64,000 nt of DNA from Desulfobacterales bacterium (GTDB taxonomy: Bacteria; Desulfobacterota; Desulfobacteria; Desulfobacterales; UBA5852): contig CAXXVS010000001.1 of assembly GCA_963674755.2 (NCBI GenBank), forward strand, positions 768,001-832,000. Direction: 5' to 3'. Of this stretch, positions 5,588-61,866 are shown one piece after another. The notes beneath the pieces are model-generated. The model was not told the DNA's origin. It searched no databases and saw nothing but the letters and a program-made list of their open reading frames with translations. Position 1 is the first letter of the stretch, and every line of letters begins with the position of its first letter. Both the position numbers and the translations under genes were made by a program.

Positions 5588-5742
5588 GGCCTGCGGCTCC
5601 CCCCCCCCGCCTTGCCATCACCCGCCGCCGGAATCATGCATTGTCAAAATCAATCGCTACCCTCTGTTGGCATCGAATTTAAAAATTTGATCCAGCCCTC
5701 CAGGTTCTGTATTTAAGTCCATATATTGGTCATTTGCTCATT

Positions 5743-5887
5743 AGTGTCCATCCATAAATGGCATCTTTCGGCCCCTGGCGGCGTTCTCGCCTCCTGTCGG
5801 TCCTCGGCGTAGCCGGGCTACGCCTGCGGGCGTCCGTCGGCTGCGGCCTTGCCAGCAACCAAAATCTACCATTTATGGATGGACACT
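5743..5887. mobile_element. MITE-like element, family R2
   Basis: Perfect 19-bp terminal inverted repeats AGTGTCCATCCATAAATGG / CCATTTATGGATGGACACT. CATT is directly repeated on both flanks (5739-5742, 5888-5891). Internal hairpins; non-coding. Confidence 0.75.
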
Positions 5888-5947
5888 CATTAAGAAAAAC
5901 TCCCCGGGCGGAGAGAATTGCCGTGGGAGACCTTGGGAGCGCCTTGC

Positions 5948-6151
5948 ATGAAGCTCATCTTTGTCTGCCCCGAGCACAACAAGGTGTTTGAAAGTGCGCA
6001 ATACCGGGTGCTGGAAAACAAGGGCGTGGTGTGTGATGCGGCCGGCAACCGCTCATTGGATGCCAAAGTTGCGCCGGAGACCCCCTGCCCCTTCTGCGGG
6101 AAAATGCATGTCTATCATGCCAGCGAGCTATCGTGTCCGTTCGGTGGCTAA
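5948..6151 (+). CDS. Small Zn-ribbon-like hypothetical protein
   Basis: MKLIFVCPEH...CPFCGKMH...LSCPF; GGGAG RBS; lies just upstream of yedE. Confidence 0.6.
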   Translation: MKLIFVCPEHNKVFESAQYRVLENKGVVCDAAGNRSLDAKVAPETPCPFCGKMHVYHASELSCPFGG

Positions 6152-6184: not shown

Positions 6185-7279
6185 TTGATGCAAGGGAAAA
6201 ACATTTTTGCGACACGCGGGGGTATCATCGGCGTGGGCGCCCTGATCGGTGTTCTGGCGCCTGTGCTGCAGAAACTCGGCAATCCCGGTAATATGGGGAT
6301 CTGCGTGGCCTGCTTCGAGCGGGACATTGCCGGTGCCGTGGGGCTCCACCGGGCGGCGGTGGTGCAGTACGTGCGCCCCGAGATCATCGGTTTCGTGCTC
6401 GGTGCGATGGCGGCCGCCTACCTTTTCAAAGAATTCCGGCCCCGGGTGGGCTCGGCCCCCATCGTGCGGTTTGTTCTGGGGGCCTTTGCCATGATCGGTG
6501 CCCTGGTTTTTCTGGGCTGCCCCTGGCGGGCCGTGCTGCGGCTGGCCGGTGGTGACGGCAATGCCATTGCAGGGATCTTGGGCCTGACCTTCGGCATCTG
6601 GATCGGTACCCTGTTTCTCAAAAAGGGCTACAACCTGGGGCGCACCCAGGCGACGCACGCCACGGTGGGGTGGATGCTGCCGCTGTTGATGGTGGGGCTG
6701 CTCGCCCTGATGGTTATGTTCCCCCAAGTCGAGGGGCAGGACAAAAGCGGGATTTTGTTCTATAGCCTCAAGGGGCCCGGCGCCATGCATGCCCCGCTGG
6801 TCGTCTCGCTGGTCGTGGGGCTGGGCATCGGTTTTCTGGCCCAGCGCAGCCGGTTCTGCACCATGGGCGCCATCCGGGACACGGTCCTCTTCGGTCAGAC
6901 CCATCTGCTGAGCGGTTTCATCAGTCTGGCCGTGGTGGCCTTTGTGACCAATCTTGTGCTCGGTCAATTCAACCCCGGATTTGCCGGGGAACCCGTGGCC
7001 CATACCATGCAGGTCTGGAATTTCGCAGGCATGGCCCTGGCCGGGTTGGCCTTCGCCCTGGCCGGCGGCTGTCCCGGGCGCCAGCTCTTTCTCTCCGGTG
7101 AGGGGGACGGTGATGCGGCCGTGTTTGTCCTGGGGATGATCGTCGGGGCGGGCTTTGCCCACAACTTCGGTCTGGCCAGTTCGCCCAAAGGGGTCGGTCC
7201 CCACGGCATTGCCGCGGTGGCCGTGGGGTTTGCGGTCTGTCTGTTCATCGGGTTCACCATGCGCCGCAAAGCGGTTTGA
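6185..7279 (+). CDS. yedE: YedE-family putative selenium transporter (YeeE/YedE)
   Basis: GNPGNMGICVACFERD, FLGCPWR, QRSRFCTMG and GGCPGRQL motifs; multi-TM; selD context. Confidence 0.9.
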   Translation: MMQGKNIFATRGGIIGVGALIGVLAPVLQKLGNPGNMGICVACFERDIAGAVGLHRAAVVQYVRPEIIGFVLGAMAAAYLFKEFRPRVGSAPIVRFVLGAFAMIGALVFLGCPWRAVLRLAGGDGNAIAGILGLTFGIWIGTLFLKKGYNLGRTQATHATVGWMLPLLMVGLLALMVMFPQVEGQDKSGILFYSLKGPGAMHAPLVVSLVVGLGIGFLAQRSRFCTMGAIRDTVLFGQTHLLSGFISLAVVAFVTNLVLGQFNPGFAGEPVAHTMQVWNFAGMALAGLAFALAGGCPGRQLFLSGEGDGDAAVFVLGMIVGAGFAHNFGLASSPKGVGPHGIAAVAVGFAVCLFIGFTMRRKAV

Positions 7280-7289
7280 GGAGGTCGCC

Positions 7290-7508
7290 ATGACAGCAAC
7301 AGTGGATGCACGGGGATTGTCCTGCCCCCAGCCGGTCATCATGACCCTGGATGAAATCAAGCAGGGGCAGGAAAATGAGATCATCGTTCTGGTGGATACG
7401 GATACGTCCAAGGAGAACGTCATACGGGCGGCCGAAAGCCAGGCCTGCCGGGTCACGGATGTGGCGCCGGAGGGCGAGGGCTATCGGATCACCCTCGCCA
7501 GGGGGTAG
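7290..7508 (+). CDS. TusA/SirA-family sulfur/selenium carrier
   Basis: VDARGLSCPQPV motif; GAGGAGG RBS. Confidence 0.9.
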   Translation: MTATVDARGLSCPQPVIMTLDEIKQGQENEIIVLVDTDTSKENVIRAAESQACRVTDVAPEGEGYRITLARG

Positions 7509-7511
7509 CTG

Positions 7512-8057
7512 GTGTTCGGTTTCCGGAAAAAGAAGAACAAGGCCAGCCCGGACCATTCCCAGGCCGCGGTGAGTCGCGGCCTGCTGGTTTTCGAGAATAC
7601 GAGCGAGGTCATCCAGGCCGAAAACCTTCTCAAAAAGGCGGGCTGGTCGGTCAGTGTCATGGGCCCGCCCCCGGAGATTCGCACGGGCTGCGATCTGGTG
7701 ATCGTCTTTCCCCTCATGGAGGAGCTGCATATCCTGCGGGAGCTGCGCCGGAAAGCCCTTGAACCCCTGCAGGTGGTGCCGGTTTCGGCCCCCCTGCTGG
7801 CGCCGGTGGACTTGTTTCAAACCAAGGATTTCGGGGACTATCTGATGGTGCGTGCGGCCAACATGAAAATCACGATCGCCAAGGGCAGCCGGCAGATCGT
7901 CAACATCTCCGGGGGCGGCTGCCCGGACGTGCCTTATCTGGCCCAGGCCATGATCGGCCAATCCCTGGCGGCGGCGCCGCGCCCCCGGGACTTGGGGCAT
8001 ACCCTCTGCGGGTATGCCCTGGAGTTGGCCTACCAGGAATTGCTGCGGCAATGTTAG
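7512..8057 (+). CDS. DUF3343 domain protein (putative Se/S carrier) with C-terminal extension
   Basis: FENTSEVIQAENLLK...PPPEIRTGCDL, plus GGGCPDVP and GHTLCG. Confidence 0.75.
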   Translation: MFGFRKKKNKASPDHSQAAVSRGLLVFENTSEVIQAENLLKKAGWSVSVMGPPPEIRTGCDLVIVFPLMEELHILRELRRKALEPLQVVPVSAPLLAPVDLFQTKDFGDYLMVRAANMKITIAKGSRQIVNISGGGCPDVPYLAQAMIGQSLAAAPRPRDLGHTLCGYALELAYQELLRQC

Positions 8058-8941
8058 GCATCGTCGGCACGGTTCCGGATCTGCAATTCCCGCTGGTCCA
8101 TGGCAAGGTCCGCTGGCAGGGCCGTCAGATCCGGATCGAGGGTCACACCATCCCGGTGAACCGGGGCACGCCGGCGCTTATCGCCGCTTCCTTAAGGGCC
8201 TGCGAATGTGCCGGCGGTCCGGAAGTCTACGCCTTCCTGGTGGGCGACACCGGTGTCGGCGAGGGCAGCCGCCGGTTGTATGATTTCCTGGCCAGGCATC
8301 TTCCCGAATTCGATTTACAGGTCTTGACCTTTCACTATCTGCAGCCGGATGTGGACTGGCACGGGCGGGTGCTGCCGGCCGTGCAGACCATGGCCCGGCG
8401 GCCGATCCTGATTGCCGATGCCGGCTTCATGTATGCCGCCAAAATGAGCGGCCAGGCCAGGCACTACGATTTCTTTACGCCGGATGTGGGCGAACTGGCC
8501 TTTCTGGCCGATGACCAGGCGCCCCATCCTTTTTACACCCGGGGTTTTATTCTGCACCAGGAGCACCAAGTGCCCGATCTTATCCGGCAGGCCTACGGAC
8601 ACGGCAATGCCGCCGCCTGCCTGGTGGTCAAAGGATCGACGGACTATATCGTCCATGATGGGAGCATCGCGGCCACCGTGGAGGCGCCCTCCTGCGACGC
8701 CATGGAAGCCATCGGCGGTACGGGCGACACCTTGACCGGCCTGTTGAGCGCTTTTTGCGGGGCGGGGTTCGATCGGATCGAGGCCGCGGTCCTGGCGGCC
8801 CGGGCCAATCGCTGGACCGGCGCTCTGGCCGACCCGACGCCCGCCACTCAGGTGCCGGAACTGATTGACAAGATTCCCGAGGCTGTGTCACATCTGCTGG
8901 ATCACAAGGATTACAGGAGCACACCGCATGGCGGAGCATGA
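8051..8941 (+). CDS. Ribokinase-fold YjeF-C / NAD(P)H-hydrate dehydratase-like protein
   Basis: LIADAG, FTPDVGEL, VKGSTD and AIGGTGDTLTG motifs. Confidence 0.7.
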   Translation: MLGIVGTVPDLQFPLVHGKVRWQGRQIRIEGHTIPVNRGTPALIAASLRACECAGGPEVYAFLVGDTGVGEGSRRLYDFLARHLPEFDLQVLTFHYLQPDVDWHGRVLPAVQTMARRPILIADAGFMYAAKMSGQARHYDFFTPDVGELAFLADDQAPHPFYTRGFILHQEHQVPDLIRQAYGHGNAAACLVVKGSTDYIVHDGSIAATVEAPSCDAMEAIGGTGDTLTGLLSAFCGAGFDRIEAAVLAARANRWTGALADPTPATQVPELIDKIPEAVSHLLDHKDYRSTPHGGA

Positions 8942-9977
8942 ACCCATTCGCCTGACCCAAAGCGTGGCCGGGGCCGGCTGAGCGTCCAAACTGGCGCCAG
9001 GGGACCTGGACCGAGCACTTTGTGGCCTGACGTTTCCCACCGACGGGAACGTCCTGGTGGGGCTGGACCGGGCCGACGACGCCGGGGTCTACCAAGTCTC
9101 CGAAGAGCTGGCCCTTATCCAGACCGTGGACTTCTTCACGCCCATTGTGGATGATCCTTATATGTTCGGGCAGATCGCCGCGGCCAACGCCCTCAGCGAT
9201 GTCTACGCCATGGGGGGCGTGCCCAAAACCGCCATGAACCTGGTGGCCTTCCCGGCCAAAGACATGGATTTGAGTGTGCTGCGCGGGATCATCCAGGGCG
9301 GAATCGACAAGCTGGTGGAGGCCGAGGTCGTCCTCTTGGGCGGGCACAGCGTCGAGGACAAGGAGTTGAAGTACGGCTTGTCGGTGACGGGTTTTGTGCA
9401 CCCGGACCGGGTGCTCACCAAGCAGAATCTGCAGCCGGGCGACCGGCTGGTGCTCACCAAACCGCTGGGCACGGGCATCGTCAATACCGCGATCAAAGCG
9501 GGCATGGCCTCGCCGGCCCTCACGGAAACGGTGACCCGCCTGATGGCGGCCTTGAATCGCGAGGCCGCCCGTATTATGGCGCGTTTCGCGGTGAACGCCT
9601 GCACCGATGTGACCGGTTTCGGCCTGATGGGCCACCTGGCGGAAATGGTGGCCGGCTCGGGCTGGAGTGTGCGGATCCTGGCCGCACAAGTTCCGTTCAT
9701 CGAAGGGGCCCTGACCTTTGCGGAAATGGGCCTGATTCCGGCGGGTGCCTACCGGAACCGCGAGTTCCGGGCGGCCATGATCGCCGTCGCGGACGACGTA
9801 CCGCGGGGGCGGCAGGATTTTCTCTTCGACCCCCAGACCTCGGGCGGGCTGCTGATCAGCGTGAAGGGGAACCAGGCCGACACCCTTGTGAACGCCTTGC
9901 AGGCGGCCGGAATGGCCGAAGCCGCTCTCATCGGCGAGGTGCTCGACGCGCCGGACGAGAAGATCTATGTTGTCTAG
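8928..9977 (+). CDS. selD: Selenide, water dikinase (selenophosphate synthetase), itself a selenoprotein
   Basis: ATG 8928 gives MAEHEPIRLTQSVAGAG-U(TGA 8979-8981)-ASKL, in frame with ORF 9057..9977. DDAGVY, TVDFFTP, ANALSDVYAMGG and DPQTSGGLL motifs. Confidence 0.96.
8997..9009 (+). promoter_or_regulatory. Candidate bacterial SECIS apical hairpin in selD
   Basis: CCAGG-GGA-CCTGG begins 15 nt after the in-frame UGA, with G in the loop. Confidence 0.65.
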
Positions 9978-10377
9978 ACGCCACCACATGTCCATCCAGA
10001 AATGACATCTTTCGACCCCTGGCCCACCGCCGATGGACCGGGTCCCCGAATGGGGATAAATCAACTTGATCCCGCCCTGCCATCCCGCGCGGGAAACCAT
10101 CGATAGAAAATACCAATCGGGCGCTATTCGGCCATTTCTATTATCGATTTGACTTATCGCCTGTTTCCATCAAAGATACCGGCCACTATTTCCTCGAAGG
10201 GCCTTTCATGACGTACGTTTTCGGATTCACATGAGCGCCTCAGCCGCAAGCCAACCGTGTTTGTTCGGCAGGAATGTGAACTGAAATCGGCCAACCGCCG
10301 ACATCCTCTTCGTTGCATGTCATTCATGCGTCTTGGGCGCTGCGTCGCTTAAAGACCTATTTTTTCAGGAGGTGGGT

Positions 10378-11655
10378 ATGAGTGAAGACTATCGCGCCAT
10401 GTGGGAACAATTGGGGCTTGATCTCGAGGCCCATGACGGCCTGCTGGGGGTTTTAAACCAGGCCTATCAGGATATTTACCTGGCCCAGGCCGACCGGCCG
10501 GAAGGTATGGGCTATTTCGACTTTGTCATGAGCGAGGTGCATGGGCTGCGCATCAAGGAACTGCTGGATGAAAAGGCCGCGGGCCGCAAGATTATCGGCT
10601 CCTATTGTGTCTTCGTGCCCGAAGAGATCGTCCTGGCGGCCAATGCCACCCTGGTGGGCCTTTGTTCGGGAGCCGATTTCGCCATGGAAGAAGTGGAAAA
10701 GCTCCTGCCGCGCAATACCTGCGCTTTGATCAAGTCCTCCTTCGGTTTCAAACTGGGCAAGGTGTGTCCCTACCTGGAAAGCGCCGACATGATCGTGGGT
10801 GAGAACACCTGCGACGGAAAGAAAAAGGCCTATGAGTCCCTGGGACCGCTGGTTAACCAACTCTATGTAATGGATCTGCCCCAAGTGAAGTCCGATCAGG
10901 GGAAGGCCCTGCTGCGGGCCGAATACGACCGCTTCAAGACCGCGGTTGAACAATTGACCGGGGTGACGGTCACGGCCGAATCCCTGCGGGCCGGCATCGA
11001 GGCGGTCAATGCCAAACGGGCCGCCATGCACCGTCTGGCCGTCCTGCGCCAGGCCGATCCGGCGCCCATTTCCGGGCTGGATGCCCTCCTGGCCAACCAG
11101 GTCTTCTTCTATGACAATCCGGCCCGCTTCACCGCCTCGGTGAACAAGATCTGCGACGAACTGGAGCAGCGCATTGCGAACAAGGTGGGGGCTTTCAACG
11201 CCGGGACGCCGCGTGTGCTTGTCGCCGGCTGCCCCCAGGCGGTGCCCAACTGGAAGCTGCCCTGGATCATCGAAACCTCCGGGGCGGTGATCGTGGGTGA
11301 GGAATCCTGTGTGGGCGAACGGGGCACCCGCAACTTCACCAAGACGACGGGCGACACCGTCGAGGAAATGATGGCGGCCATCGTGGACCGCTATTTTGAG
11401 GTGGACTGCGCCATCTTCACCCCCAATCCCCAGCGCCTGACCCACATCGAGAATATGGTGGCCGACTACCGGGCCGACGGCGTGATTCATTACGGCCTCC
11501 AGTTCTGCCAGCCCTACCTCATGGAGTCGATGCCGGTGGAAAAGGCCTTGGAAGACAAGAATATTCCCTGCTTGAGAATCGAAACCGACTACAGCATGGA
11601 AGATGTGGGCCAGTTGAAGACCCGTATAGAAGCCTTTATCGAGCAGCTGCGCTAA
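10378..11655 (+). CDS. Double-cubane [8Fe-9S] cluster protein (2-hydroxyacyl-CoA dehydratase family, YjiM-like)
   Basis: N-terminal WxxLGLDLExHD..RPEGMGYFD. Cys motifs YCVFVP, GLCSG, RNTCAL, NTCDGKK, AGCP, EESCVG, DCAIF and QFCQPY. Confidence 0.85.
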   Translation: MSEDYRAMWEQLGLDLEAHDGLLGVLNQAYQDIYLAQADRPEGMGYFDFVMSEVHGLRIKELLDEKAAGRKIIGSYCVFVPEEIVLAANATLVGLCSGADFAMEEVEKLLPRNTCALIKSSFGFKLGKVCPYLESADMIVGENTCDGKKKAYESLGPLVNQLYVMDLPQVKSDQGKALLRAEYDRFKTAVEQLTGVTVTAESLRAGIEAVNAKRAAMHRLAVLRQADPAPISGLDALLANQVFFYDNPARFTASVNKICDELEQRIANKVGAFNAGTPRVLVAGCPQAVPNWKLPWIIETSGAVIVGEESCVGERGTRNFTKTTGDTVEEMMAAIVDRYFEVDCAIFTPNPQRLTHIENMVADYRADGVIHYGLQFCQPYLMESMPVEKALEDKNIPCLRIETDYSMEDVGQLKTRIEAFIEQLR

Positions 11656-11737
11656 CAGGCCGTGGATAAACGGCGCCTCAGACCAGAATGCGGCATTGTA
11701 CCGCGTTGCGGGAGTTCTTATCGGATCATTTGGGCTA

Positions 11738-11820
11738 GGGTGAGTCCCGTCCTCGCGAAACCGCCGCAGCAACCCTGATGGTTGCTGCGTATTTCGCATC
11801 GGGTGGCCGTCCTTTCACCC
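11738..11820. repeat. REP-like hairpin repeat (second copy at about 30590-30660)
   Basis: CCGTCCTCGCGAAAC..AACCCT(G)ATGG(T/C)TGC(T/G)GCGTAT..CGC.TCGG is shared between the two sites. Confidence 0.6.
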
Positions 11821-11864
11821 CGTTGGTTATACGCGATCTGTTAATGCGGCAGGGAAGGATTAAA

Positions 11865-12620
11865 ATGCGGTTTGCAGGTATCGATATCGGTTCGCGCGCC
11901 ATTAAACTGGCGGTGGTGGATGAAGCCGGCAAGGTACTGAAAAGGTCCCGCAGCGATACCGGGTTCGATCCCATGGCGGCGGCCGGGAAGTTGGTCGACG
12001 GAGTGGCTTTCGACCGCATCCTGGCGACGGGCTACGGCCGCAGCCTGTTCGAGATCGCCAGGGAAGCCCCCACGGTGACCGAGATCAAGGCCCATGCCAC
12101 AGGCGCCCGGGCCTGTTTCCCGGAAGCCCGGGCCGTGCTGGACATCGGCGGGCAGGACAGCAAGGCCATCGCCCTGTTCGAGAACGGGAAGGTAAAGAAA
12201 TTCGAGATGAACGACCGCTGTGCGGCCGGCACCGGCAAATTCCTCGAAATCATGGCCCGCACCCTTGGGTTCGGCATCGCGGATTTCGGGCGGGAGGCCC
12301 TGGCGGCCGACGAGGAGCTCAACATCTCCAGCATGTGCACGGTCTTTGCCGAATCCGAGGTCACTTCCCTGATCGCCAAGGGACAGAACCGGCGGGCCAT
12401 CGCCCGGGGCCTCCATGCCAGTGTCATCCGCCGGGCCGCGGGCATGATCAACCGGGTATCGTCAGAGGGCGCTATCGTGTTCACCGGCGGGGTGGCCCAA
12501 AATCCCTGCATGCGAAAGCTGCTGGCGGACAAATTGCACCGCAGGATCCTTGCACCGGACGACCCGCAGATGGTAGGGGCGTTAGGTGCGGCTTTGCTGG
12601 CCGCGGAAGCGGCTCCCTGA
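11865..12620 (+). CDS. ATP-dependent activase/reductase (HgdC/BadFG ASKHA family, DCCP-R-like)
   Basis: GIDIGS, ATGYGR, DIGGQDSK, NDRCAAGTG and SSMCTVFAESE motifs. Confidence 0.92.
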   Translation: MRFAGIDIGSRAIKLAVVDEAGKVLKRSRSDTGFDPMAAAGKLVDGVAFDRILATGYGRSLFEIAREAPTVTEIKAHATGARACFPEARAVLDIGGQDSKAIALFENGKVKKFEMNDRCAAGTGKFLEIMARTLGFGIADFGREALAADEELNISSMCTVFAESEVTSLIAKGQNRRAIARGLHASVIRRAAGMINRVSSEGAIVFTGGVAQNPCMRKLLADKLHRRILAPDDPQMVGALGAALLAAEAAP

Positions 12621-12668
12621 GCGACCGATAACGGCGGTTCAATCGTTTTATGACAGCGAGGTGGAATC

Positions 12669-13265
12669 ATGAAAGAAATCGACGCCCGCGGGCTGGCCTG
12701 TCCGGGGCCTGTGCTGCAAACCAAGGCGGCCCTGGATGAGGGCCAATTGCAGGGGGTGACCGTACTGGTGGACAATGCGGCCTCCCAGCAGAACGTGCAA
12801 CGTTTCCTGGAGTCCCAGGGCTTCGAGACCCGGATCGAGCAGGACGGTGAGGACTACCGGATCATCGGCAGCGGCGCGGCCGCGCCGGCCGACCAGCCTG
12901 AGCCCGGCCCCGCGCCCCAGACCGAAGCCAAGAAAATCATGGTGATGTGCGCCACCGACCGTATGGGGTTCGGGGACGACGAGCTGGGGTTGAAACTGAT
13001 GGTCAATTTTGTACGCACCCTGAAAGAAATGGGCCCCGAGCTCTGGCGGCTGGTTTTCGTGAACAATGGGGTCAAACTCGCCATCGATGGCTCCGCGGTG
13101 CTCGAAGATCTGCAGGCCTTTGAGGAAGACGGCCTGAAGATCTTGGTCTGCGGGACCTGTCTGGATCATTTCGCGCTGCTGGAACGCAAACAGGTGGGCG
13201 AGACCACCAACATGCTGGACATCGTCACGGCCATGCAGCTGGCCGACAAAGTGGTCAGCATCTGA
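12669..13265 (+). CDS. yedF: Sulfurtransferase-like selenium metabolism protein YedF (SirA + DsrE-like domains)
   Basis: IDARGLACPGPV; MGFGDDELG, NNGVKL, CGTCLDHF and TNMLDIV motifs. Confidence 0.9.
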   Translation: MKEIDARGLACPGPVLQTKAALDEGQLQGVTVLVDNAASQQNVQRFLESQGFETRIEQDGEDYRIIGSGAAAPADQPEPGPAPQTEAKKIMVMCATDRMGFGDDELGLKLMVNFVRTLKEMGPELWRLVFVNNGVKLAIDGSAVLEDLQAFEEDGLKILVCGTCLDHFALLERKQVGETTNMLDIVTAMQLADKVVSI

Positions 13266-13394
13266 GGCGGCTAAGGGCGGAATAAAGGATCGGGCCGACT
13301 GGTCTGCCATCGGGAATCCCGCGGGCGACATACCGAAGACACATGGTGGGGGAAGGCTTATCCCTGACTTCGCCCCCCATTGCGAACATGGGAT

Positions 13395-13772
13395 TCAACG
13401 GGCGCGGTGTTTGCCCTGTCTGGCTTTGATGACTTGAATCACTTCGCGGTTGAAGGCGCATTCGCAAAACGCGTCGCAGCGATCGAGCTGATCTTTTTCC
13501 AGACAATAACCGGGGCAGCCTTCCTTGCCGGTCCGCCGCTCGGTATATGTTGTCCCGTTATACAGGCTTATGAATTGTCCTGCGAAAATCGTGAGCGTCG
13601 TGTGGCAGTCCTCTGCCCGGTGATTGAAAAAAAACAGCCCCCTTTCGAGCTTTCCAAAGTCTGCCATATAGCCGCATATCTCAAGGGACGGGTCGTCCAG
13701 GAATTCATCGAGATCAGCCCATTGGGTGCCGCACATCGGGCATGTCTTGAATGGTTTTTTCCCCTGCATCAT
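13395..13772 (-). CDS. Cys-rich hypothetical protein
   Basis: CPMC, H...C, CPGYC and CDAFCEC motifs; GGAG RBS. Confidence 0.65.
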   Translation of the reverse strand: MMQGKKPFKTCPMCGTQWADLDEFLDDPSLEICGYMADFGKLERGLFFFNHRAEDCHTTLTIFAGQFISLYNGTTYTERRTGKEGCPGYCLEKDQLDRCDAFCECAFNREVIQVIKARQGKHRAR

Positions 13773-14028
13773 GGGGGCTCCCGGTCTAAAACAAGAGCGA
13801 TTACCGATTGTCGCCGTGCAACGAACACATCAGCCCATTGACGGCGGCGCCCGGCAGGCATATTTTCAATCAATACATGGAACACGGTAGCAGACTCGCT
13901 CCCGGAAAATCAACATGATTCCTGCCCCAGACGTTGACAAGACCCTGGGCGTGCTGTTAGTAAGCATCCCAATACGGCCTATCTGAAGATAGGTTCATGT
14001 AACACCCAATGTATCCATGATTTCCGAT

Positions 14029-14084
14029 AGCCACGAAGGCGACGGCTTCCCCCGAGGGGATTCCGGCCTTTGTGGTTTTTTTTT
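14029..14084 (+). terminator. Intrinsic-terminator-like hairpin in the leader of DUF3842-cooT
   Basis: AGCCACGAAGGC (14029-14040) pairs with GCCTTTGTGGTT (14066-14077), with inner stem TCCCC/GGGGA and a T9 run. TTGACA lies at 13934. Confidence 0.7.
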
Positions 14085-14102
14085 GAGGGGAGAAGAGCGC
14101 GG

Positions 14103-14522
14103 TTGAGACGCATTTGTGTGATGGACGGCCAGGGCGGGGGGATCGGCGCGACCTTGATCCAGTATCTGAAAGCCCAATTGGGCGAGACGGTGGAGCTGGT
14201 GGCGCTGGGCACCAACGCCATTGCCACCGCCCGGATGTTGAAAGCCGGGGCCAACAAGGGCGCTTCCGGTGAAAACGCCATCTGCCGGACGGTAGCCCGG
14301 GCGGACTGCATCGTGGGTCCGGTGGCCGTCACCTGGGCCAACGCCATGCTGGGAGAGGTAACCCCCCGGATGGCCGAGGCGGTCATGTCCAGCGCGGCCC
14401 CCAAGATTATTCTACCCCTTTCCCAGGAAAATGCGGAATTTGTCGGTCTGACCAAAGAACCGCTCCCCCACCTCGTGGAGGCGGCGGTTGTCAAAATAAA
14501 GGAGGTGATGAGGCATGTGTGA
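14103..14522 (+). CDS. DUF3842 family protein
   Basis: ICVMDGQGGGIG, ALGTNAIAT, GASGENAI and NAMLGEVTP motifs; TTG start after GAGGGG. Confidence 0.85.
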   Translation: MRRICVMDGQGGGIGATLIQYLKAQLGETVELVALGTNAIATARMLKAGANKGASGENAICRTVARADCIVGPVAVTWANAMLGEVTPRMAEAVMSSAAPKIILPLSQENAEFVGLTKEPLPHLVEAAVVKIKEVMRHV

Positions 14523-14712
14523 AGCCAACGCCTATTGGACCCGCGAAAGCGGTGAAGAACTGATCATGGAGGCTGTGGATACCATCGAACCGGAAGGCGA
14601 TGGAAACTGGCGGCTGGTGGGTATTTTCGGCGACCAGAAGAGCATTCGGGGTCGGATCAAGGGCATGCACCTGGTGGATCATAAGATCCTTTTCGAGGTG
14701 CCGGCCGACTGA
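14515..14712 (+). CDS. CooT-family nickel-binding protein
   Basis: MCEANAY...IFGDQK...LVDHKI; AAGGAGG RBS. Confidence 0.85.
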   Translation: MCEANAYWTRESGEELIMEAVDTIEPEGDGNWRLVGIFGDQKSIRGRIKGMHLVDHKILFEVPAD

Positions 14713-15576: not shown

Positions 15577-16713
15577 TTAGCCCAGCTGGGCCCGCAATAC
15601 CTGAAAAAGGCGCTCGACGTCCGCATCGGTATTGTAGAGGTGGGGAGCGATCCGGATCGAGTCGCCCCGGGCACTGGCGAAGACATTGGCTTCGGCCAGC
15701 CGGGCGGGGAGATCGGAGGGGAACCCACGGGGGTGCCGCAGTCCGATCAGGTGGGGGGCCCGGTAGGCGGCCGGGGCGACCTCCAGCCCCAGGCCGGCGG
15801 CGCGCTCCGCGATGGCATCGGTGCGGGCCCTCAGGGTTTCGGCGATGGCCACCACCCCCCAGGAGAGAATCTGGCGTAGCGCTTCGCCGGCGATGGGGGC
15901 CAGGTTGAAATTGCTGGCCTCGCCGGCATCGAAGCGTTTGGCCCCGTCCTGGTAGGCTTCCCGGTAGTCCACCAGGCGCGCAAAATCTTCGGCGCCTGCG
16001 CGATTCAACCAGTTCTCCTCCAAAGGATGGCCGTCCTGCCAGCGGGGGGCGATGTAGCAGAACCCGTAGCTGTAAGGGCCCAGGAGCCATTTGTGGGCGG
16101 TGGTGACGAGGAAGTCCGGCTGAATTTGGGACACTGAAAAGGGCATGGCGCCCAGGGACTGGGTGCCGTCCACCACCAGGGCGCTCTGGCAGGCACGGCA
16201 GTGTCGGCCCACGGCGACCAGATCGATGAGGGTGCCGTCCGTCCAGTGACAGTGGGGCAGGGCGGCGACGGCCGTCCGGGGTGTAATGGCGGTCAGCACA
16301 GCCGAAGTCCAGTTGCCGTCTGCCGGCCGCGGCACGCGCACGATGTCAGCCCCGCAGTCCCGCGCCAGGCGGTGCCAGGAATAGATATTGGAAGGGAACT
16401 GGTCCTGGAGGACAACGATGGTCTGGCCCGCTTCGACCGGAAGATTGCGGGCGGCCAACGCGATGCCGTAGGATACCGAGGGGATGATGGCCACATCCTC
16501 CGGTGAAGCTTCCACCAGGGCTGCAAAAAGCCTCCGGTTGGCATTGAGATCGCTGAAGAAGAAGTCGGTGGTCAAGGCCCAGGGCGCTGACTTGCGGGTC
16601 AGCGCGTGTTGTCCGATCGCGGCGGCCGATTTGAGCAGCGGCGAGGTATAGGCGCAATTGAAATAAGCCACGTTCTCCGGTATGGTAAATAATTCACGTT
16701 GGCAGGGAATCAT
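15577..16713 (-). CDS. Aminotransferase class V PLP enzyme
   Basis: YFNCAYTSP, VDGTQSLG, AHKWLLGP (PLP Lys) and IRIAPHLYN motifs. Confidence 0.88.
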   Translation of the reverse strand: MIPCQRELFTIPENVAYFNCAYTSPLLKSAAAIGQHALTRKSAPWALTTDFFFSDLNANRRLFAALVEASPEDVAIIPSVSYGIALAARNLPVEAGQTIVVLQDQFPSNIYSWHRLARDCGADIVRVPRPADGNWTSAVLTAITPRTAVAALPHCHWTDGTLIDLVAVGRHCRACQSALVVDGTQSLGAMPFSVSQIQPDFLVTTAHKWLLGPYSYGFCYIAPRWQDGHPLEENWLNRAGAEDFARLVDYREAYQDGAKRFDAGEASNFNLAPIAGEALRQILSWGVVAIAETLRARTDAIAERAAGLGLEVAPAAYRAPHLIGLRHPRGFPSDLPARLAEANVFASARGDSIRIAPHLYNTDADVERLFQVLRAQLG

Positions 16714-19857: not shown

Positions 19858-21333
19858 TCAGGATGATGTTTTGGCAGAGGTTACACGCCCCTTCCGTTTC
19901 CCCTGGCGCCAAACGGTGGCGTGGTCGTGATCCCGGAGACGAACGCCGTCCTCCTCCAGACGTCTTCGCAAGCGATCGGCCGTGCGCCAATCGCCGGCCT
20001 GCCGGGCCGACTGGCGACGGGCCACCAGGCGTTCGACAACCGGACGCGGGAGTTCAGGAGCGCAGGTGCTGGGGGGCAGACGGCGATAGCCCTCCAGCGG
20101 CGTCTGCAAGAGCCCGAGCACATGCCGCGTCAAGTAGATGAAATCGGTCGCCGTATCCGCCACCGTGCGCCGGAAGGTGTTGCAGCGCATCGGTCCCGCC
20201 GCATCCAGGGCCCGGTTGATTTCCCGCATGGTTTCGAAGACCACCGCCAGGCCACCGGGCACATTGTCGTCCAGGGCCAGTTGGCCGCTGAAGCGCTGCC
20301 AGAGACGGCTTCCACAGGGCACCGACGGATCGCATGCCCCCATCCAGGCCTGCAAGCGCCCCGCCAGGGTATAAAAACGGTCCAACTGACGTGCGGCTTG
20401 CCCCAGCGCGTTTGCGCTGAAGGGGAGATCGCGTCGATAATGGCGTGACAGGAGAAAAAGACGCACCGCCTCGGGATGATAAGCGGCCAGAAGATCTTCC
20501 AGCGGCGGGGCATTGCCTTTGGACTTGGCCATTTTGACGTGTCCCACCGTAACCATGCCGTGATGGAGCCAGATATCGGCCGGCGGTTGGCCGAAGGCGG
20601 CGCGGGATTGAAGGATTTCATTGGCGTGGTGGGGGAATCGCAGATCGCAGCCCCCGCCGTGGATGTCGAAGGGGATGTCCAGCAGGGTGTGGCTCATGGC
20701 CGTGCACTCGATGTGCCAGCCGGGGCGGCCCGGTCCCCAGGGGCTCTCCCAGAAGGGCTCCCCGTTCTGGCGCCCCTTCCAGAGGGCGAAGTCGTGCGGG
20801 TGACGTTTGTCCACGTCGACCGGCGGGCCGCTATTCACCGGACGGGCATCTGCTTCCGGTTGCCAGGCGATCGGGCCGGAGTCTCCAAGGCTGTGGGACG
20901 AAAAATAGATTGACCCGCCACGGCGGTAGGCATGGCCGCGCTGCAAGATGCGGGCGATGACCGCCTGGCAGGCGCCGACATAATCGGTTGCCCGGGGGGC
21001 GGCATGGGGCGGCCGTACGTTCAGGGCGGCCATGGCCGTGTCGTATTCGCGGCCATAGCGCTCGGCCACGCGGCGGTAGTCCTGGTCGCCCTCCCGGGCG
21101 CGCCGCAGAATCTTGTCGTCGATATCGGTGATATTGCGCACCAGGGTGACATCGTATCCGACGGCTTCCCAAAAGCGGCGGAAGACGTCGAAGATTACCG
21201 CCGAACGGGCGTGACCGAGGTGGGGTGCCGCATAGACCGTCGGTCCGCAGACATAGATCCCCAGATGCCGGGCTTTGCGGGGCCGCAGGTCCTCCATTTC
21301 CCGGGAGAAGGAATTATAGAACCGCAGGTTCAC
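19858..21333 (-). CDS. cysS: Cysteine--tRNA ligase paralogue (CysRS*-like)
   Basis: YVCGPTVY, HLGH, NITDIDDK, DFALWK, GRPGWHIEC, FPHHANE and KMAKS motifs; diverged. The GTG start overlaps the selB 3' end. Confidence 0.92.
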   Translation of the reverse strand: MNLRFYNSFSREMEDLRPRKARHLGIYVCGPTVYAAPHLGHARSAVIFDVFRRFWEAVGYDVTLVRNITDIDDKILRRAREGDQDYRRVAERYGREYDTAMAALNVRPPHAAPRATDYVGACQAVIARILQRGHAYRRGGSIYFSSHSLGDSGPIAWQPEADARPVNSGPPVDVDKRHPHDFALWKGRQNGEPFWESPWGPGRPGWHIECTAMSHTLLDIPFDIHGGGCDLRFPHHANEILQSRAAFGQPPADIWLHHGMVTVGHVKMAKSKGNAPPLEDLLAAYHPEAVRLFLLSRHYRRDLPFSANALGQAARQLDRFYTLAGRLQAWMGACDPSVPCGSRLWQRFSGQLALDDNVPGGLAVVFETMREINRALDAAGPMRCNTFRRTVADTATDFIYLTRHVLGLLQTPLEGYRRLPPSTCAPELPRPVVERLVARRQSARQAGDWRTADRLRRRLEEDGVRLRDHDHATVWRQGKRKGRVTSAKTSS

Positions 21334-23254
21334 CGTTGGTCTTCTCCTTCAATACCCGTTCGTTGCCCTGACGGATGGTGAAGCCGACCTGGTCCAGATA
21401 TTCAAACACGGGCACCGCGCCCATACGGCCATATCCCAGCAGCCCTTTGCTATCGGCAAGACGAAGACCGCCCTGGTGGCGGATTTGATGCCGGATGCGC
21501 GCCTTGATCGTCTCCAGGGCGGCCGGCGTGAGAAACCGTCCGTTGTTCAGACGAATCATTTTCTGCTGGCGCACAAGATAGGAAAGGACCTTTTGCAGCT
21601 CGGCTTTGGCGATCGCCACGGTACACGCCCTGAGAAGGGTCGCTTCGCTGAACGGACAGAGGCCGATGCCCTCGGCGGCCGCCAGAGCGTGATCCAGGAG
21701 GTGGGTCCGGCGGGCGTCGGACACGGCCAGGGATGCAGTCAGACGGTAGTGGCCGTCGCTTTTTTCGAGCTTGCCGCTTCGCACCAGATCGGCAAGGAGG
21801 CTGCCCAGCAGCACGGGATCCATTCCGGGGGGCAGGCCGTCTTTGATTTCAGCGGCTGCCAGCCCCCGATGGAAGGGGTCTTGTTCCAGGGCGGAGGCGA
21901 CGTTGGCCAGGATGACGTCGCGATGACGGTCATAGTGATCCTTCCGGATGGCACCGTGGCCCTTAACGTAGACGAGATCGCCGCGATGGACCCGGGCATT
22001 GACTTCAGCCTCCAGAGGACCGCCGGGCAGGCCGGTGGCGTCGGCCAGATCCTGGGCGGACAGAAGACGATGCGCGTTTTTTTGCAAAAGAACATCGGCA
22101 CAGGCCGGGATATCACGCGCTTCCAGCGCCTCCAGAAAGGGAACGACGGCGTCGTGTTTGGCGGGCCGGTATTTCTGCCGTGTCCGTTCCAGCAGAATCC
22201 CGCCGCCCAAAACCTGGTTGCGGTTCAGGAGGGCGATGACGAAGGCCTCGCCTAAAGCAGCGTTCAACGGTTCGGCAAGACGAAACTGTACCAGACCCTT
22301 TTGACCTGCCCGCAGGTGCACCCGGCCCATCAGATGGGTCGTGGCCTGGTGAACGGCCGTGCCCACATAGAGTTTGACCCTTTGACCGTGCTTCAAAACG
22401 CCCTGGGGGGCGGATCGCATGCGCAGGGCGGCATTGTAGAGACGGCTGCCGGGGTGCGCGCCCGGAGAGGCCAGCAGCATGCCCCGGGCGATGGCGGCGA
22501 GCGGAATTTTGGGCAGGTTGATGCCCACCCGCTGGCCGCCTACCGCCGAGGTGACCCGGCCGCCGTGGCATTCCATGGAACGGACCCTGGCCGGGATCCC
22601 GGCGGGCAGGATTTCGAGTTCCTGGCCTTCATGAACGCCGCCCCCGGCCACGGTGCCGCTGACCACGGTACCGATCCCGGCCAGCTGCCGCACCTGATCG
22701 ATCCAGAGCCGGAAGGGGCCCGGATGAGAATCCCGGGGCAGGCGTGCGATTTCTTCCCTGAGGGCGTGGGTGATGATGTCGATGTCCGGAGGCTGGCGGT
22801 TCGAAAATGACAGCATCGGTTTGCCCGCGAGAAACGTCCCCTCAAGCAGGTCTTCCAGCTCAAGCTTGGCAATTTCGACGGTTTCCGGGTCCACTAGGTC
22901 GGTTTTGCTGAGGACGACCAGCCCGCCCCGGGTTCCGAAATACTGGAGAATGTCCAGGTGCTCCCGGGTCTGGGGCATGACCCCGTCATCGGCGGCGACC
23001 ACCAGCAGGGCCAGATCCACCCTGTGCAAGCCGCGGATGGCGTTTTTCAGAAAATCCACATGGCCCGGGACATCAACCAGGGCCAGGCCCACATCGGCGA
23101 AAACCGACCAGGCCGCGATGCCGGCTTCGATGGACAGGCCGCGGCGTTTCTCCTCCGGATTGCGGTCCGTATCGATGCCGGTAAGGTGTTTGACGAGGGT
23201 CGTTTTGCCGTGATCCACATGTCCGGCCACACCGATCGTAAGGTAGTGTCTCAT
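21314..23254 (-). CDS. selB: SelB-family elongation factor, diverged (SelB*-like)
   Basis: GHVDHGKT, EEKRRGLSI, DVPGH, DDGVMPQTREHL and C-terminal winged helix VFEYLDQVGFTIRQGNER. Confidence 0.93.
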   Translation of the reverse strand: MRHYLTIGVAGHVDHGKTTLVKHLTGIDTDRNPEEKRRGLSIEAGIAAWSVFADVGLALVDVPGHVDFLKNAIRGLHRVDLALLVVAADDGVMPQTREHLDILQYFGTRGGLVVLSKTDLVDPETVEIAKLELEDLLEGTFLAGKPMLSFSNRQPPDIDIITHALREEIARLPRDSHPGPFRLWIDQVRQLAGIGTVVSGTVAGGGVHEGQELEILPAGIPARVRSMECHGGRVTSAVGGQRVGINLPKIPLAAIARGMLLASPGAHPGSRLYNAALRMRSAPQGVLKHGQRVKLYVGTAVHQATTHLMGRVHLRAGQKGLVQFRLAEPLNAALGEAFVIALLNRNQVLGGGILLERTRQKYRPAKHDAVVPFLEALEARDIPACADVLLQKNAHRLLSAQDLADATGLPGGPLEAEVNARVHRGDLVYVKGHGAIRKDHYDRHRDVILANVASALEQDPFHRGLAAAEIKDGLPPGMDPVLLGSLLADLVRSGKLEKSDGHYRLTASLAVSDARRTHLLDHALAAAEGIGLCPFSEATLLRACTVAIAKAELQKVLSYLVRQQKMIRLNNGRFLTPAALETIKARIRHQIRHQGGLRLADSKGLLGYGRMGAVPVFEYLDQVGFTIRQGNERVLKEKTNGEPAVL

Positions 23255-23273: not shown

Positions 23274-23365
23274 TGGAAGGGGCAAGGGGAATCGAACCTC
23301 CTCCTCGTTGTTCAGACGAGGCCGACGGTTTTGAAGACCGCGGGGTGCCCAGCACCATTGCCCCT
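23274..23365 (-). tRNA. Non-canonical UCA-anticodon tRNA with Cys identity (selC*-type tRNA-Cys(UCA))
   Basis: Minus strand reads AGGGGCAATGGTGCTGGGCACCCCGCGGTCTTCAAAACCGTCGGCCTCGTCTGAACAACGAGGAGGAGGTTCGATTCCCCTTGCCCCTTCCA. It folds into an 8-bp acceptor stem (A1:U72), D-arm GGTGC/GCACC, anticodon loop CT-TCA-AA, variable arm CCTCGT/ACGAGG and T-stem GG(A)GG/CCCC. Discriminator is U, and CCA is encoded. Confidence 0.9.
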
Positions 23366-59360: not shown

Positions 59361-61802
59361 CTATTTCCACAGGAATACAGCCAGTGATTGCTCGCTGGTA
59401 TTTCCCGCGTCATCAATTGCCGTAACAGTGATGGTGTTCCACCAGCGGCTAAGTTCAATGCCGCTGGCTTCCCAGTTGTCGGTTCCAACACATGTACCGC
59501 TTTCTCCACGGCTGTTGCGCCATATTACTTTAGCAAGACCGACATCGTCAGAGGCATTGCCTCCGATTGTCACAGTAGCTGTCCTTGAGAAATAGGACTT
59601 TTTGGTTGTCGGTGACGTTATTTGCACTGTCGGCTTAGTCGTATCGGTTGCATTATAGATAACCGTTAGCACATCGGTTGATTTGTTGCCGGAACTGTCC
59701 ACAGCTGTCACGGTTATCGTGTTGGTACCCAATGCAAGATTGATGCCTGGAATTGACCAACTGAGGGTGCCGTTGGCGATCCCGCCAGCACCTGTCGAAC
59801 TGCTCCAGGTAACTTGCTTGAGGCTTTGGTCATCATCAGCGGTGCCAGACAAGCTGGCTTGGCTTGAGTTCGTTGTAAAGGTTCCGTTATCGGTAGGCGT
59901 GGTGATCGTGATAACGGGGGCCTGGGTGTCGGGTGCCGTAAAAGATACGGCAATAGTATCGGAGGCCTGATTGCCGCTGGCATCGACTGCTGTCACAGTG
60001 ATGATGTTTTGGCCTTCAGCCAGAGCGATGCCGTCGATGGACCAGTTGGTCGTGCCCGAAGCCGTTCCATTGCCACCGGTTGAGCAGGTCCAGGTGACCT
60101 GTTGTAGGCTATTGTTATCACTGGCTGTACCTGCCAGCGAGATCGTTGCCGTGTTCGTTGAGTGGGAATCCGCCGATACCGGTGACGTAATAGCCACTTC
60201 AGGGTTGGTGGTGTCAGGGGCCGTGTACGTTACGGTCAATGTGTCCGTGCCTTCATTGCCGGCGGCATCCACAGCCGTTACGGTGATCGTGTTGACGCCC
60301 TCCTGTAAAGCGATCGCATTTATTGCCCAATTTGTCGTACCGGTGGCGGTGCCGCTTTGACCGGCGGAACTTGCCCACCGAACTTCGGTGAGCCCGCTGT
60401 CATCCTGGGCCGATCCGGAAATGGCAAGGGTTGCCTTGTCGGTCGGGTAGCTGCCGCTAGTGGTCGGGCTGAGAATGGACACGATGGGCGCCGTTTCATC
60501 GGGAGAGGTGGCGGCGACCCCGAAGATATCGACTTCAGTAATGCTGTTCCAATCATTGTTAAGGTTGCCGTAGCCGACGATGCGAACGTAGCGACCAACT
60601 GCATTGGAGATTTGGTAGCTTTCCTGCTGCAGCGTTGTCCCACTGCTTTGCCCTTTGAAAACACTGCTCCATGAACTCGCATTGTTGGATACAAAGATTT
60701 CGAACTCAGAATTGACGTTTATTGTATCGGCCCAAGCGTAGGCGATCAGAATTTTAGAAAGGTCAAAGGAGGCCCCTAGATCATATTGAATCCACTGACC
60801 GTCACCATATGCAGACCATCTGGTCGACAGGTCATTGTCAATGGTATTCGCAGCGGTGTTGCCGTCGTCGCTGCTAGAGGTTACAGAGACCACGGGCAGA
60901 CCCTCGACAACCGCAAAATAGCTGATCGTAATGGCATCGGTAGCCTGATTACCGCTGGCATCGGTGGCTGTCACGGTGATCGTGTTGACGCCCTCCTGTA
61001 AAGCGATCGCATTTATTGTCCAATCTGTCGTACCGGTGGCGGTGCCGCTTTGACCGGTTGAGCAGGTCCAGGTGACCTGTTGTAGGCTATTGTTATCACT
61101 GGCTGTACCTGCCAGCGAGATCGTTGCCGTGTTCGTTGAGTGGGAATCCGCCGATACCGGTGACGTAATAGCCACTTCAGGGTTGGTGGTGTCAGGGGCC
61201 GTGTACGTTACGGTCAATGTGTCCGTGCCTTCATTGCCGGCGGCATCCACAGCCGTTACGGTGATGACATTTTGTCCTTCGGTAAGCTCGATGGCTCCCG
61301 TGGCCCAGGAGTCGGTTCCGGAGGCCGTGCCGCTGGCGCCGCTGGAACTCTGCCAGGTGATCTGCTGGAGATCGTGATCGTCAGTGGCCGAACCGGAAAG
61401 GGTCACCGCCGGATCTAAAGAGGTGTAGGTATCCGCCTCCACTGGTGATAAAATTGATACACTCGGGGCGATATTATCTAGGGTTGAAAACTGTTTGCTG
61501 ATCTCCGAGGAGAATCCGCTTTCGTTGCCTGCATTATCCAAAGCGGAAACAGCAAAATAGTAGGTTTCGCCTTCTACCAAGCCTTGGATTTCATATAGGT
61601 TGACGTTCCCAACAGGAATGGGCGGCCCATAGGATCGAGGTTGGGTGCCAAAGTATACATTATATCCCTGTAAATCGAGCTCGGTGTTCGGCTGCCAAGA
61701 CAAGCGAACCGTAGCGGCAGTAGAGATTTGCGGTATGAAAAGGATAAGTGCGGTTGGAAAAATGAGCAACCAGAGACTGATTTTACGTGTTATATCTTTC
61801 AT
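59361..61802 (-). CDS. Secreted FN3 + multiple Ig-like repeats + F5/8-type carbohydrate-binding domain protein
   Basis: Signal peptide, FN3, about six repeats of P.V.I.SP...G.A.DD...G.N.ITVTA.D..GN, and TIDNDLSTRWS..GRYVRI..SITEV. Confidence 0.85.
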   Translation of the reverse strand: MKDITRKISLWLLIFPTALILFIPQISTAATVRLSWQPNTELDLQGYNVYFGTQPRSYGPPIPVGNVNLYEIQGLVEGETYYFAVSALDNAGNESGFSSEISKQFSTLDNIAPSVSILSPVEADTYTSLDPAVTLSGSATDDHDLQQITWQSSSGASGTASGTDSWATGAIELTEGQNVITVTAVDAAGNEGTDTLTVTYTAPDTTNPEVAITSPVSADSHSTNTATISLAGTASDNNSLQQVTWTCSTGQSGTATGTTDWTINAIALQEGVNTITVTATDASGNQATDAITISYFAVVEGLPVVSVTSSSDDGNTAANTIDNDLSTRWSAYGDGQWIQYDLGASFDLSKILIAYAWADTINVNSEFEIFVSNNASSWSSVFKGQSSGTTLQQESYQISNAVGRYVRIVGYGNLNNDWNSITEVDIFGVAATSPDETAPIVSILSPTTSGSYPTDKATLAISGSAQDDSGLTEVRWASSAGQSGTATGTTNWAINAIALQEGVNTITVTAVDAAGNEGTDTLTVTYTAPDTTNPEVAITSPVSADSHSTNTATISLAGTASDNNSLQQVTWTCSTGGNGTASGTTNWSIDGIALAEGQNIITVTAVDASGNQASDTIAVSFTAPDTQAPVITITTPTDNGTFTTNSSQASLSGTADDDQSLKQVTWSSSTGAGGIANGTLSWSIPGINLALGTNTITVTAVDSSGNKSTDVLTVIYNATDTTKPTVQITSPTTKKSYFSRTATVTIGGNASDDVGLAKVIWRNSRGESGTCVGTDNWEASGIELSRWWNTITVTAIDDAGNTSEQSLAVFLWK

Positions 61803-61849
61803 TAAATACCTCTCACGGGAAAAAATTCTATTGTTGGGTGAGGGGTATC

Positions 61850-61866
61850 TGCAAATGTTGAGCCAG
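61850..61866 (-). promoter_or_regulatory. Sigma54 (-24/-12) promoter
   Basis: Minus strand CTGGCTCAACATTTGCA = TGGC-N7-TTGCA, 48 bp upstream of ATG 61802, with AT-rich DNA further upstream. Confidence 0.65.

Follow-up and report, generated by a model that had tools for sequence, protein, structure and literature searches.

The closest described relatives of the system reported here are the double-cubane cluster protein (DCCP) of Carboxydothermus hydrogenoformans and its reductase (DCCP-R; CHY_0487/0488; 6ENO, 7YYL). The authors of these structures, Jeoung, Martins and Dobbek, state that the physiological function of DCCP is unknown (PMC7317905, PMC9351452). They also report that production in E. 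coli gives an active all-sulfur enzyme and that the N-terminal extension of class I proteins closes the coenzyme A (CoA) channel, which leaves the solved protein with narrow channels only (Jeoung et al.). DCCP and DCCP-R genes have been reported to lie in one unit with a LysR gene and to decrease under carbon monoxide (PMC7306483). In this work, we analysed a DCCP/DCCP-R pair encoded in a 64,000-nucleotide stretch of contig CAXXVS010000001.1 from a Desulfobacterales bacterium (hereafter the window, in which all coordinates are given). Unlike in the papers on the Carboxydothermus pair, whose main texts contain no match to 'selen', the pair is seated here between selD and yedF in a cluster of selenium genes. 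DCCP genes recurrently adjoin such genes and their distribution is nested within those of YedF and SelD, which is consistent with a role in selenium supply.

A link between DCCP and SelD is already in print, together with both main hypotheses on its nature. Haft and Gwadz (2022; bioRxiv 10.1101/2022.07.06.499078) placed 955 of 970 strong hits to NF040772 in SelD genomes, and proposed that DCCP processes selenium compounds or, as a formal possibility, has a selenium-bridged cluster. They also described copies adjacent to SAO loci and DCCP without SelD in methanogens. Adjacency was measured there to SAO loci only, and YedE, YedF and DUF3343 are absent from the main text, to which our comparison is confined (supplements excluded). 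In Lin et al. 2015 (PMC5322559), YedE, YedF, LysR and DUF3343 have a dehydratase subunit and an activase among their partners in a STRING table for Slackia; in the text available to us, both are named only in this table, under old names and for one organism. A preprint on type 1 mlp clusters and methyl-selenide (Kountz and Balskus, PMC10418091) provisionally links DCCP to selenium. The word 'cubane' has no match in the accessible text of PMC13188914 and occurs in that of PMC12176620 in a reference only. In the literature covered, with most subscription journals outside its scope, neither an experimental test nor counts of DCCP beside yedF or selD were found. Beyond Haft and Gwadz, as far as their main text goes, the present work adds the YedF dependence in two phyla, controlled counts of adjacency to selD, yedF and selB, a with/without series inside one genus and a pointer to published starvation data and to a mutant. 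If true, the bolder form of the reading developed below would give the DCCP family a physiological function and selenium assimilation a missing reductive step.

The cluster comprises the following genes, in order (E, expectation value; aa, amino acids):

5948 to 6151, plus strand: Cys/His protein of 67 aa heading the cluster, matched only by unnamed Atlas clusters
6188 to 7279, plus strand: YedE, putative selenium transporter (TIGR04112, 481.6 bits, cut-off 200)
7290 to 7508, plus strand: SirA/TusA-type carrier of 72 aa (PF01206, E 3.8e-18)
7512 to 8057, plus strand: DUF3343 selenium/sulfur carrier-like protein, long form (PF11823, E 4.6e-21)
8051 to 8941, plus strand: ribokinase-fold (Carb_kinase) protein (PF01256, 38 bits)
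8928 to 9977, plus strand: SelD selenophosphate synthetase (TIGR00476, 377.6)
10378 to 11655, plus strand: class I DCCP of 425 aa (NF040772, 468.4 bits, cut-off 350)
11865 to 12620, plus strand: DCCP-R, ASKHA-type ATP-dependent reductase of 251 aa (TIGR00241, 214.9; PF01869; PDB 7YYL chain E, E 7.2e-48)
12669 to 13265, plus strand: YedF with TusA and DsrE domains (TIGR03527, 213.8 bits, cut-off 110)

The first-pass annotation of this DNA, made from its letters alone, had read yedE-sirA-DUF3343-kinase-selD-DCCP-activase-yedF on one strand, and all eight genes were found in that order. Its view that selenium/sulfur carrier genes stand on both sides of the pair also held, with sirA/tusA and DUF3343 upstream and yedF downstream, and its calls of a DCCP-like protein and an activase agree with the model scores listed above. 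Selenium-type YedE, YedF, DUF3343 and SelD occur together, TIGR04112, TIGR03527, PF11823 and TIGR00476 all scoring above cut-off, and the named close homologues are of Desulfobacterales type. The carrier and transporter genes are the same as in the selenium neighbourhood of Lin et al.; unlike type 1 mlp clusters as described in the preprint, the cluster has no corrinoid or methyltransferase gene. A LysR_Se regulator and a Sec-lyase-like gene (Sec, selenocysteine) are both missing from the cluster, candidates for them lying on another contig. No gene of the nine-gene sao cassette is among the annotated flanking genes within 5 kb, the rest of the genome not having been searched for SAO. The selD gene is itself a selenoprotein gene, with an in-frame TGA at codon 18 (8979-8981) and a hairpin downstream.

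The DCCP aligns with PDB 6ENO/7YYL over residues 4-424 (E 2.9e-136) and, because this alignment starts at residue 4, it belongs to class I, the class of about 420 aa with the N-terminal extension. Each of its seven cysteines (77/96/115/145/311/344/377) pairs with a cysteine of the solved protein; their spacing (18/18/29/165/32/32) is one residue below the printed formula at two places, and the strict pattern failed. Length class, extension, cysteines and an adjacent ASKHA reductase are all features of the Carboxydothermus pair. The biochemical hallmarks of the family are an [8Fe-9S] cofactor and the reduction of acetylene, azide or hydrazine at the expense of ATP. The reductase has two conserved cysteines (Cys119 and Cys158) and, by homology, would hydrolyse ATP to supply the double-cubane cluster of its partner with electrons of very low potential. 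The 2-hydroxyacyl-CoA dehydratases and class I benzoyl-CoA reductases have the fold family (PF06050) and ATPase type in common with DCCP but are heterodimers acting on CoA esters, and the operon holds a single subunit gene, with no second homologous dehydratase-type subunit encoded. Models of these enzymes remain far under cut-off for the window's DCCP (NF052456, 109.3 versus 700; TIGR03190, 77.7 versus 453.8; TIGR02263, 63 versus 421.15), which is the single over-cut-off DCCP of its genome. Selenocysteine in DCCP was considered and rejected: no Sec-like in-frame TGA extension occurs among 125 family open reading frames (ORFs), and the split DCCP ORFs of two loci (L265, L267) are due to frame changes. 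Class I and class II DCCP genes are often found in tandem, some with one shared reductase (L041, L048, L051, L097, L128, L170, L174, L181, L192, L195, L227-L249), which hints at heterodimers or at two substrates. Long representatives of 700-870 aa (P0245, P0257, P0268, P0271) have double DCCP-like domains, or a reductase fused ahead of DCCP.

The genomic coupling of DCCP to selenium genes was assessed in about 9 kb on each side of 14 close orthologues, of one broken congener copy and of 100 regions around matches in 301 evenly sampled genomes of the phylum. ORF calling gave 125 family members, of which 4 without the seven cysteines were removed, leaving 121 genes; no ORF came from the broken copy, and the calling overlooked at least one paralogue of class II (L113). 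Marker families were checked against NCBIfam for 58 ORFs. A selenium marker was found within 1.5 kb of 36 of the 121 genes, within 5 kb of 39 and within 9 kb of 48, and 27 of the 73 genes with full flanks were positive. At 5 kb, adjacency extends to 37 of 108 genomes and 27 of 59 families, and 25 of the 121 genes have selB, selC or selD in reach. The partners within this distance are yedF (26), selD (15), DUF3343 (14), selB (10), LysR_Se (9), Sec-lyase-like (8), yedE (8) and tRNA-Sec (5); two loci have the Se-type LysR as their sole selenium gene. In contrast, none of 20 dehydratase/benzoyl-CoA reductase paralogue loci from an order-level sample had any selenium marker in the whole region (Fisher p 0.001), and only 2.2% of random positions in the genome of the window fall within 5 kb of one. 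Compared with these two controls, 39 of 121 is not explained by chance, and the lack of enrichment beside selenium genes, which the first-pass annotation had named among the grounds for refuting it, is clearly not what is seen. Among the 16 remaining over-cut-off matches, 4 were positive. Gene orders around DCCP vary widely and both classes adjoin selenium genes; on a FastTree tree, the adjacency label changes 27 times in both classes, at least 20 of the changes being forced by well-supported branches, although short contigs scored negative inflate this count.

The association is also found outside the phylum, with 37 of 80 named-genome loci positive, 22 of the 80 being from Actinomycetota, mainly near-identical Collinsella. 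Single positives came from Myxococcota, Bacteroidota, Cloacimonadota and Bacillota, and none from nine other phylum labels represented by one to three loci each. For Bacillota, 13 of 107 genomes in the sample have yedF no more than 5 kb away from DCCP, with one match among the 13 scoring under cut-off. A bathyarchaeon (L275, G374:C7:193654-197784) has LysR, tusA-like, class I DCCP and selD genes in a row, without an adjacent reductase.

Other neighbours recur as well. Within 5 kb, PstS-type ABC genes accompany DCCP in 10 loci of 7 families (L032, L037, L055, L057, L060, L061, L067, L099, L138, L139). Further flanking genes encode TOBE proteins (8 loci), ModA (2), a TIM-barrel protein (4) and a protein of 160-200 aa without a name (8). 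HdrD-like CCG proteins flank DCCP in 10 loci, and HdrD-like, HdrA and MvhD genes do so in 7-10 loci. In five loci (L031, L078, L129, L133, L140), the genes directly before or after DCCP encode an NMT1-type binding protein, an ATPase and a SaoP-like permease, joined in two cases by a corrinoid protein.

At the level of whole genomes, the distribution is nested in two phyla, SelD being wider than YedF and YedF wider than DCCP. In the phylum of the window, 281 of 301 genomes have selD, 202 have yedF and 115 have DCCP at E 1e-80 (112 over cut-off). SelD is found in 111 of 115 genomes with DCCP versus 170 of 186 without (p 0.10), a comparison that is uninformative because nearly all of the genomes (281/301) have SelD. 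Among SelD genomes, YedF occurs in 106 of 111 with DCCP versus 93 of 170 without. In 331 Bacillota genomes, SelD accompanies DCCP in 106 of 107 cases versus 126 of 224 genomes without DCCP, and among the 232 SelD genomes YedF is found in 101 of 106 with DCCP versus 84 of 126 without, a count that leaves out 98 genomes without DCCP and SelD and includes some matches spanning only the DsrE half. As related genomes are not independent, the p values of such profiles overstate the case. YedF is the closest partner of DCCP; it has three invariant cysteines (Cys11, Cys161 and Cys164 in an alignment of 43). SelD was also present in 23 of 26 DCCP genomes picked among the named-genome loci. Of five DCCP genomes tested further, one has SelA and three hold SelU with no SelA or SelB over cut-off; on the strength of these three, DCCP tracks SelD and not selenocysteine. 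In the bathyarchaeon, SelA, SelB, SelU and YqeB were not found with bacterial models. In an archaeal sample of 76 genomes, 8 have DCCP.

Taken alone, profile and neighbourhood fit a supplier and a consumer of selenium alike. Supply is favoured because the adjoining genes encode uptake, carrier, lyase, regulator and decoding functions, because the all-sulfur enzyme is active and because a candidate member in Methanococcus behaves like scavenging genes, opposite to selenium clients. The reading that we prefer, with middling confidence, is that DCCP/DCCP-R is an optional, accessory selenium-scavenging reductase feeding YedF and SelD. With these low-potential electrons, DCCP would release selenide from selenium species that are small and hardly available, most plausibly zero-valent or sulfur-bound selenium (Se(0), selenosulfide, polyselenide, selenosulfate) as formed in sulfidic habitats. 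Selenium may transit the bridging sulfide site of the double-cubane cluster, YedF would take it on a cysteine and pass it to SelD, and SelD would then make selenophosphate for whichever trait the cell has. The pair would widen the range of usable selenium or lower its threshold, and would not be a core step.

Selenite and sulfide react to give Se(0) and mixed sulfur-selenium species, and the step of lowest potential is the one that turns Se(0) into selenide. In view of this chemistry, Se(0) and mixed species appear the best candidates, both lying outside the set of sources on which the Methanococcus mutant discussed below was tried. Selenite and the common organoselenium compounds are unlikely to be sole substrates given the thioredoxin and mutant data below, and the narrow channels of class I proteins argue for small species rather than protein-bound perselenide. 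The first-pass annotation had suggested that the pair reduces a carrier-bound or imported selenium/sulfur species to selenide for SelD: its supply side remains the best reading in the light of the YedF dependence and the starvation data, while carrier-bound perselenide fits the channels poorly and the step is not a needed one, as congeners lacking the pair attest. A complex prediction of DCCP with YedF scored 0.00 in both runs, for which controls were not folded. In a bolder form that we hold only tentatively and with more doubt than trust, DCCPs would constitute a nitrogenase-like, ATP-driven selenium-mobilising system of anaerobes in bacteria and archaea, in which selenide is freed via the [8Fe-9S] bridging site, handed to YedF/SelD and the system induced by starvation.

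The starvation data come from Methanococcus maripaludis (PMC11097638). On selenium depletion, the HgdB-like gene MMJJ_07100, which is not named in the main text, rises 57-fold (Table S3), together with pstS (6.6), tusD/tusA (24/22), yedE (39/42), DUF3343 (4.9), modA (55), sdmABC (48-223) and a TIM-barrel gene, whereas selenoprotein genes drop 10- to 150-fold; Cys isoforms and Hmd are likewise induced. A primer for MMJJ_07100 reads GLFCTFVP, which fits the first-Cys motif, but the motif of dehydratase controls is similar. Metagenome contigs scanned twice with primers yielded no match, and further searches reached no Methanococcus protein. The mutant JpST2, in which MMJJ_07100 and pstS are deleted, may already be a DCCP knock-out. 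On selenocystine, it showed a small rise (0.13 versus 0.02) that is common to three other mutants, and its no-selenium signal was lower (0.79 versus 2.87), so that the test has a narrower range (PMC11097638).

Several observations weigh against the scavenging proposal. Sequence evidence did not confirm that MMJJ_07100 is a DCCP, and JpST2 had no defect on selenocyanate, dimethylselenide, dimethyldiselenide, selenomethionine, selenate, methylselenocysteine, methylseleninate or 1 uM selenite (PMC11097638). Thioredoxin suffices to reduce selenite for selenoprotein synthesis (PMC8538045). No selenium marker lies within 5 kb of 82 of the 121 DCCP genes (46 of the 73 with full flanks), most SelD genomes are without the pair, and the nested profile suits a selenium client equally well. 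A class II clade occurs in Methanosarcina, Methanolobus and kin, and SelD was not over cut-off in the one such methanogen genome tested. Finally, the pair is dispensable within the genus itself. A protein search recovered no intact class I DCCP in 12 congeners, three of which (97-99% complete) keep the operon without the pair, selD being followed by yedF after 62-84 bp; a fourth (G004, L045:9211-9571) has DCCP-R with a DCCP broken by a frame change together with the loss of about 900 bp. As congeners run the operon without it, as most SelD genomes lack it and as thioredoxin reduces selenite, the pair is not a required step of selenium use. The genus thus offers natural with/without comparisons. 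A foreign cassette of DCCP-R and yedF was rejected since, in the yedF and selD trees, the window groups inside the genus next to G004; gain in these two and loss in the other congeners cannot be told apart. A broken DCCP beside intact selenium genes is also seen in L265 and L267, in which the frame changes may be sequencing errors.

Among the alternatives, an unlikely one with some appeal is that DCCP is a selenium client, whose native cofactor has a selenium bridge (8Fe-8S-1Se) made with the help of SelD and YedF and whose substrate is unrelated to selenium. DCCP needs SelD and YedF and not vice versa, as expected of a client; the bathyarchaeon has its LysR, tusA-like, DCCP and selD row with no bacterial-type SelA/SelB, SelU or YqeB found, Haft and Gwadz raised the option formally, and nitrogenase, which turns over selenocyanate, can place selenium in a bridging sulfur site (PMC4755756). 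However, the all-sulfur enzyme is active, DCCP occurs without SelD in methanogens, the bathyarchaeon result rests on bacterial selenocysteine models, archaeal ones not having been run, and MMJJ_07100, if a DCCP, rises without selenium while true clients fall.

Rather improbable in turn is a DCCP that is selenium-regulated without acting on selenium, either as a selenium-free back-up of a selenoenzyme or on a sulfur analogue (persulfide, polysulfide, small sulfur compounds) with the same carriers. The induction of Cys isoforms and Hmd in depleted Methanococcus would suit this reading, as would the lack of a JpST2 phenotype on selenium sources; sulfur, too, is handled by TusA, DsrE, YedE and desulfurase folds, 7-10 DCCP loci are flanked by HdrD-like, HdrA and MvhD genes, and SelD-less methanogens have DCCP. 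A back-up enzyme gives no reason, however, for a seat between selD and yedF, or beside selB/tRNA-Sec, in many independent orders, and the adjoining carriers are of selenium-specific subfamilies (TIGR03527, TIGR04112, NF040786). We give still less credit to a protective role, in which DCCP would remove or recycle a dead-end or toxic product such as over-oxidised carrier-bound selenium, a metal selenide or an oxyanion co-imported by PstS/ModA-type transporters. The pstS-type, TOBE and ModA genes (10, 8 and 2 loci), the SAO-adjacent copies in print and the dispensability of the pair in congeners are compatible with it, but the Methanococcus gene, if a DCCP, is induced by selenium starvation and not by excess.

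An incidental position, as a mobile two-gene unit or an ordinary 2-hydroxyacyl-CoA dehydratase subunit, might be read from the dispersed repeats in both flanking gaps and from congeners without the pair at this spot, but is very improbable and largely refuted by recurrence across phyla, the adjacency counts (39/121 versus 0/20 and 2.2%), the Bacillota SelD profile (106/107), dehydratase/benzoyl-CoA reductase models far below cut-off and the lack of an encoded partner subunit. The first six genes are packed, with gaps of 36, 10, 3, -7 and -14 bp, and the two wider gaps flanking DCCP hold repeats dispersed genome-wide:

5736 to 5895, no strand: dispersed palindromic repeat upstream of the cluster, forming a long hairpin, not cluster-specific (255 BLASTN pieces in the genome)
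9978 to 10377, no strand: 400-bp gap between selD and DCCP, with a dispersed repeat of about 80 bp (9988-10065) and then unique DNA
11656 to 11864, no strand: 209-bp gap between DCCP and the activase, filled by a second dispersed repeat (11656-11830; 31 BLASTN pieces in the genome)

Given these 400-bp and 209-bp gaps and their repeats, selD, DCCP and DCCP-R need not belong to a single transcript, and the unique DNA of the first gap could give room to a separate promoter. No RNA run was listed among 6 sequencing runs. A sigma-70 consensus scan found none on the plus strand ahead of DCCP, and a motif search in 70 of 116 DCCP upstream regions returned weak palindromes that differ by seed (8.8-12.6 bits versus 9.1 for shuffled sequences). 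Sequence shared upstream of yedE and DCCP was rejected as a regulatory element, being the genome-wide repeat. The intergenic repeats at 5736-5895, 9988-10065 and 11656-11830 form two families, one of them the long palindrome. The gene order is not an assembly artefact, since selD-DCCP (9185-10541, 5 differences) and activase-yedF (12070-14000) are both spanned by contigs from another public study.

Some further genes of the cluster call for comment. The 67-aa Cys/His gene is at the operon head in all congeners checked, and its product, which gave no match in Pfam and NCBIfam searches, is possibly a metal or selenium carrier. It also adjoins DCCP or DCCP-R in loci without yedE (L032, L035, L039, L041, L043). 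The kinase-like protein scores under the NAD(P)HX dehydratase cut-off (TIGR00196, 35.6 versus 129.85), which leaves PF01256 as its sole family; yedE, long DUF3343 and the ribokinase-fold gene form a block in all nine kinase-bearing loci of the first sample.

The selenocysteine-decoding genes form a separate unit 8-10 kb downstream, on the opposite strand, and selA is about 170 kb from the cluster:

21314 to 23254, minus strand: SelB elongation factor (TIGR00475, 279.5 bits, cut-off 242.25)
23274 to 23365, minus strand: tRNA-Sec (ARAGORN)

Besides the cluster selD, the genome has a second Sec-containing selD (G000 C3:2083613-2084611), a second tRNA-Sec (C2:1226048-1226145) and a second, divergent selB-like gene (C2:1902839-1904752), with selA remaining single despite these. 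DUF3842 and CooT genes (14070-14712) come after the cluster, a position kept in congeners. Elsewhere in the window, a class V pyridoxal-phosphate enzyme (15577-16713) scores below every desulfurase cut-off and a cysteinyl-tRNA synthetase gene (19858-21333) lies directly downstream of selB. Finally, a protein of 813 aa that has Ig-like repeats and an F5/8 domain is encoded beside IS21-type transposase genes (59361-63952).

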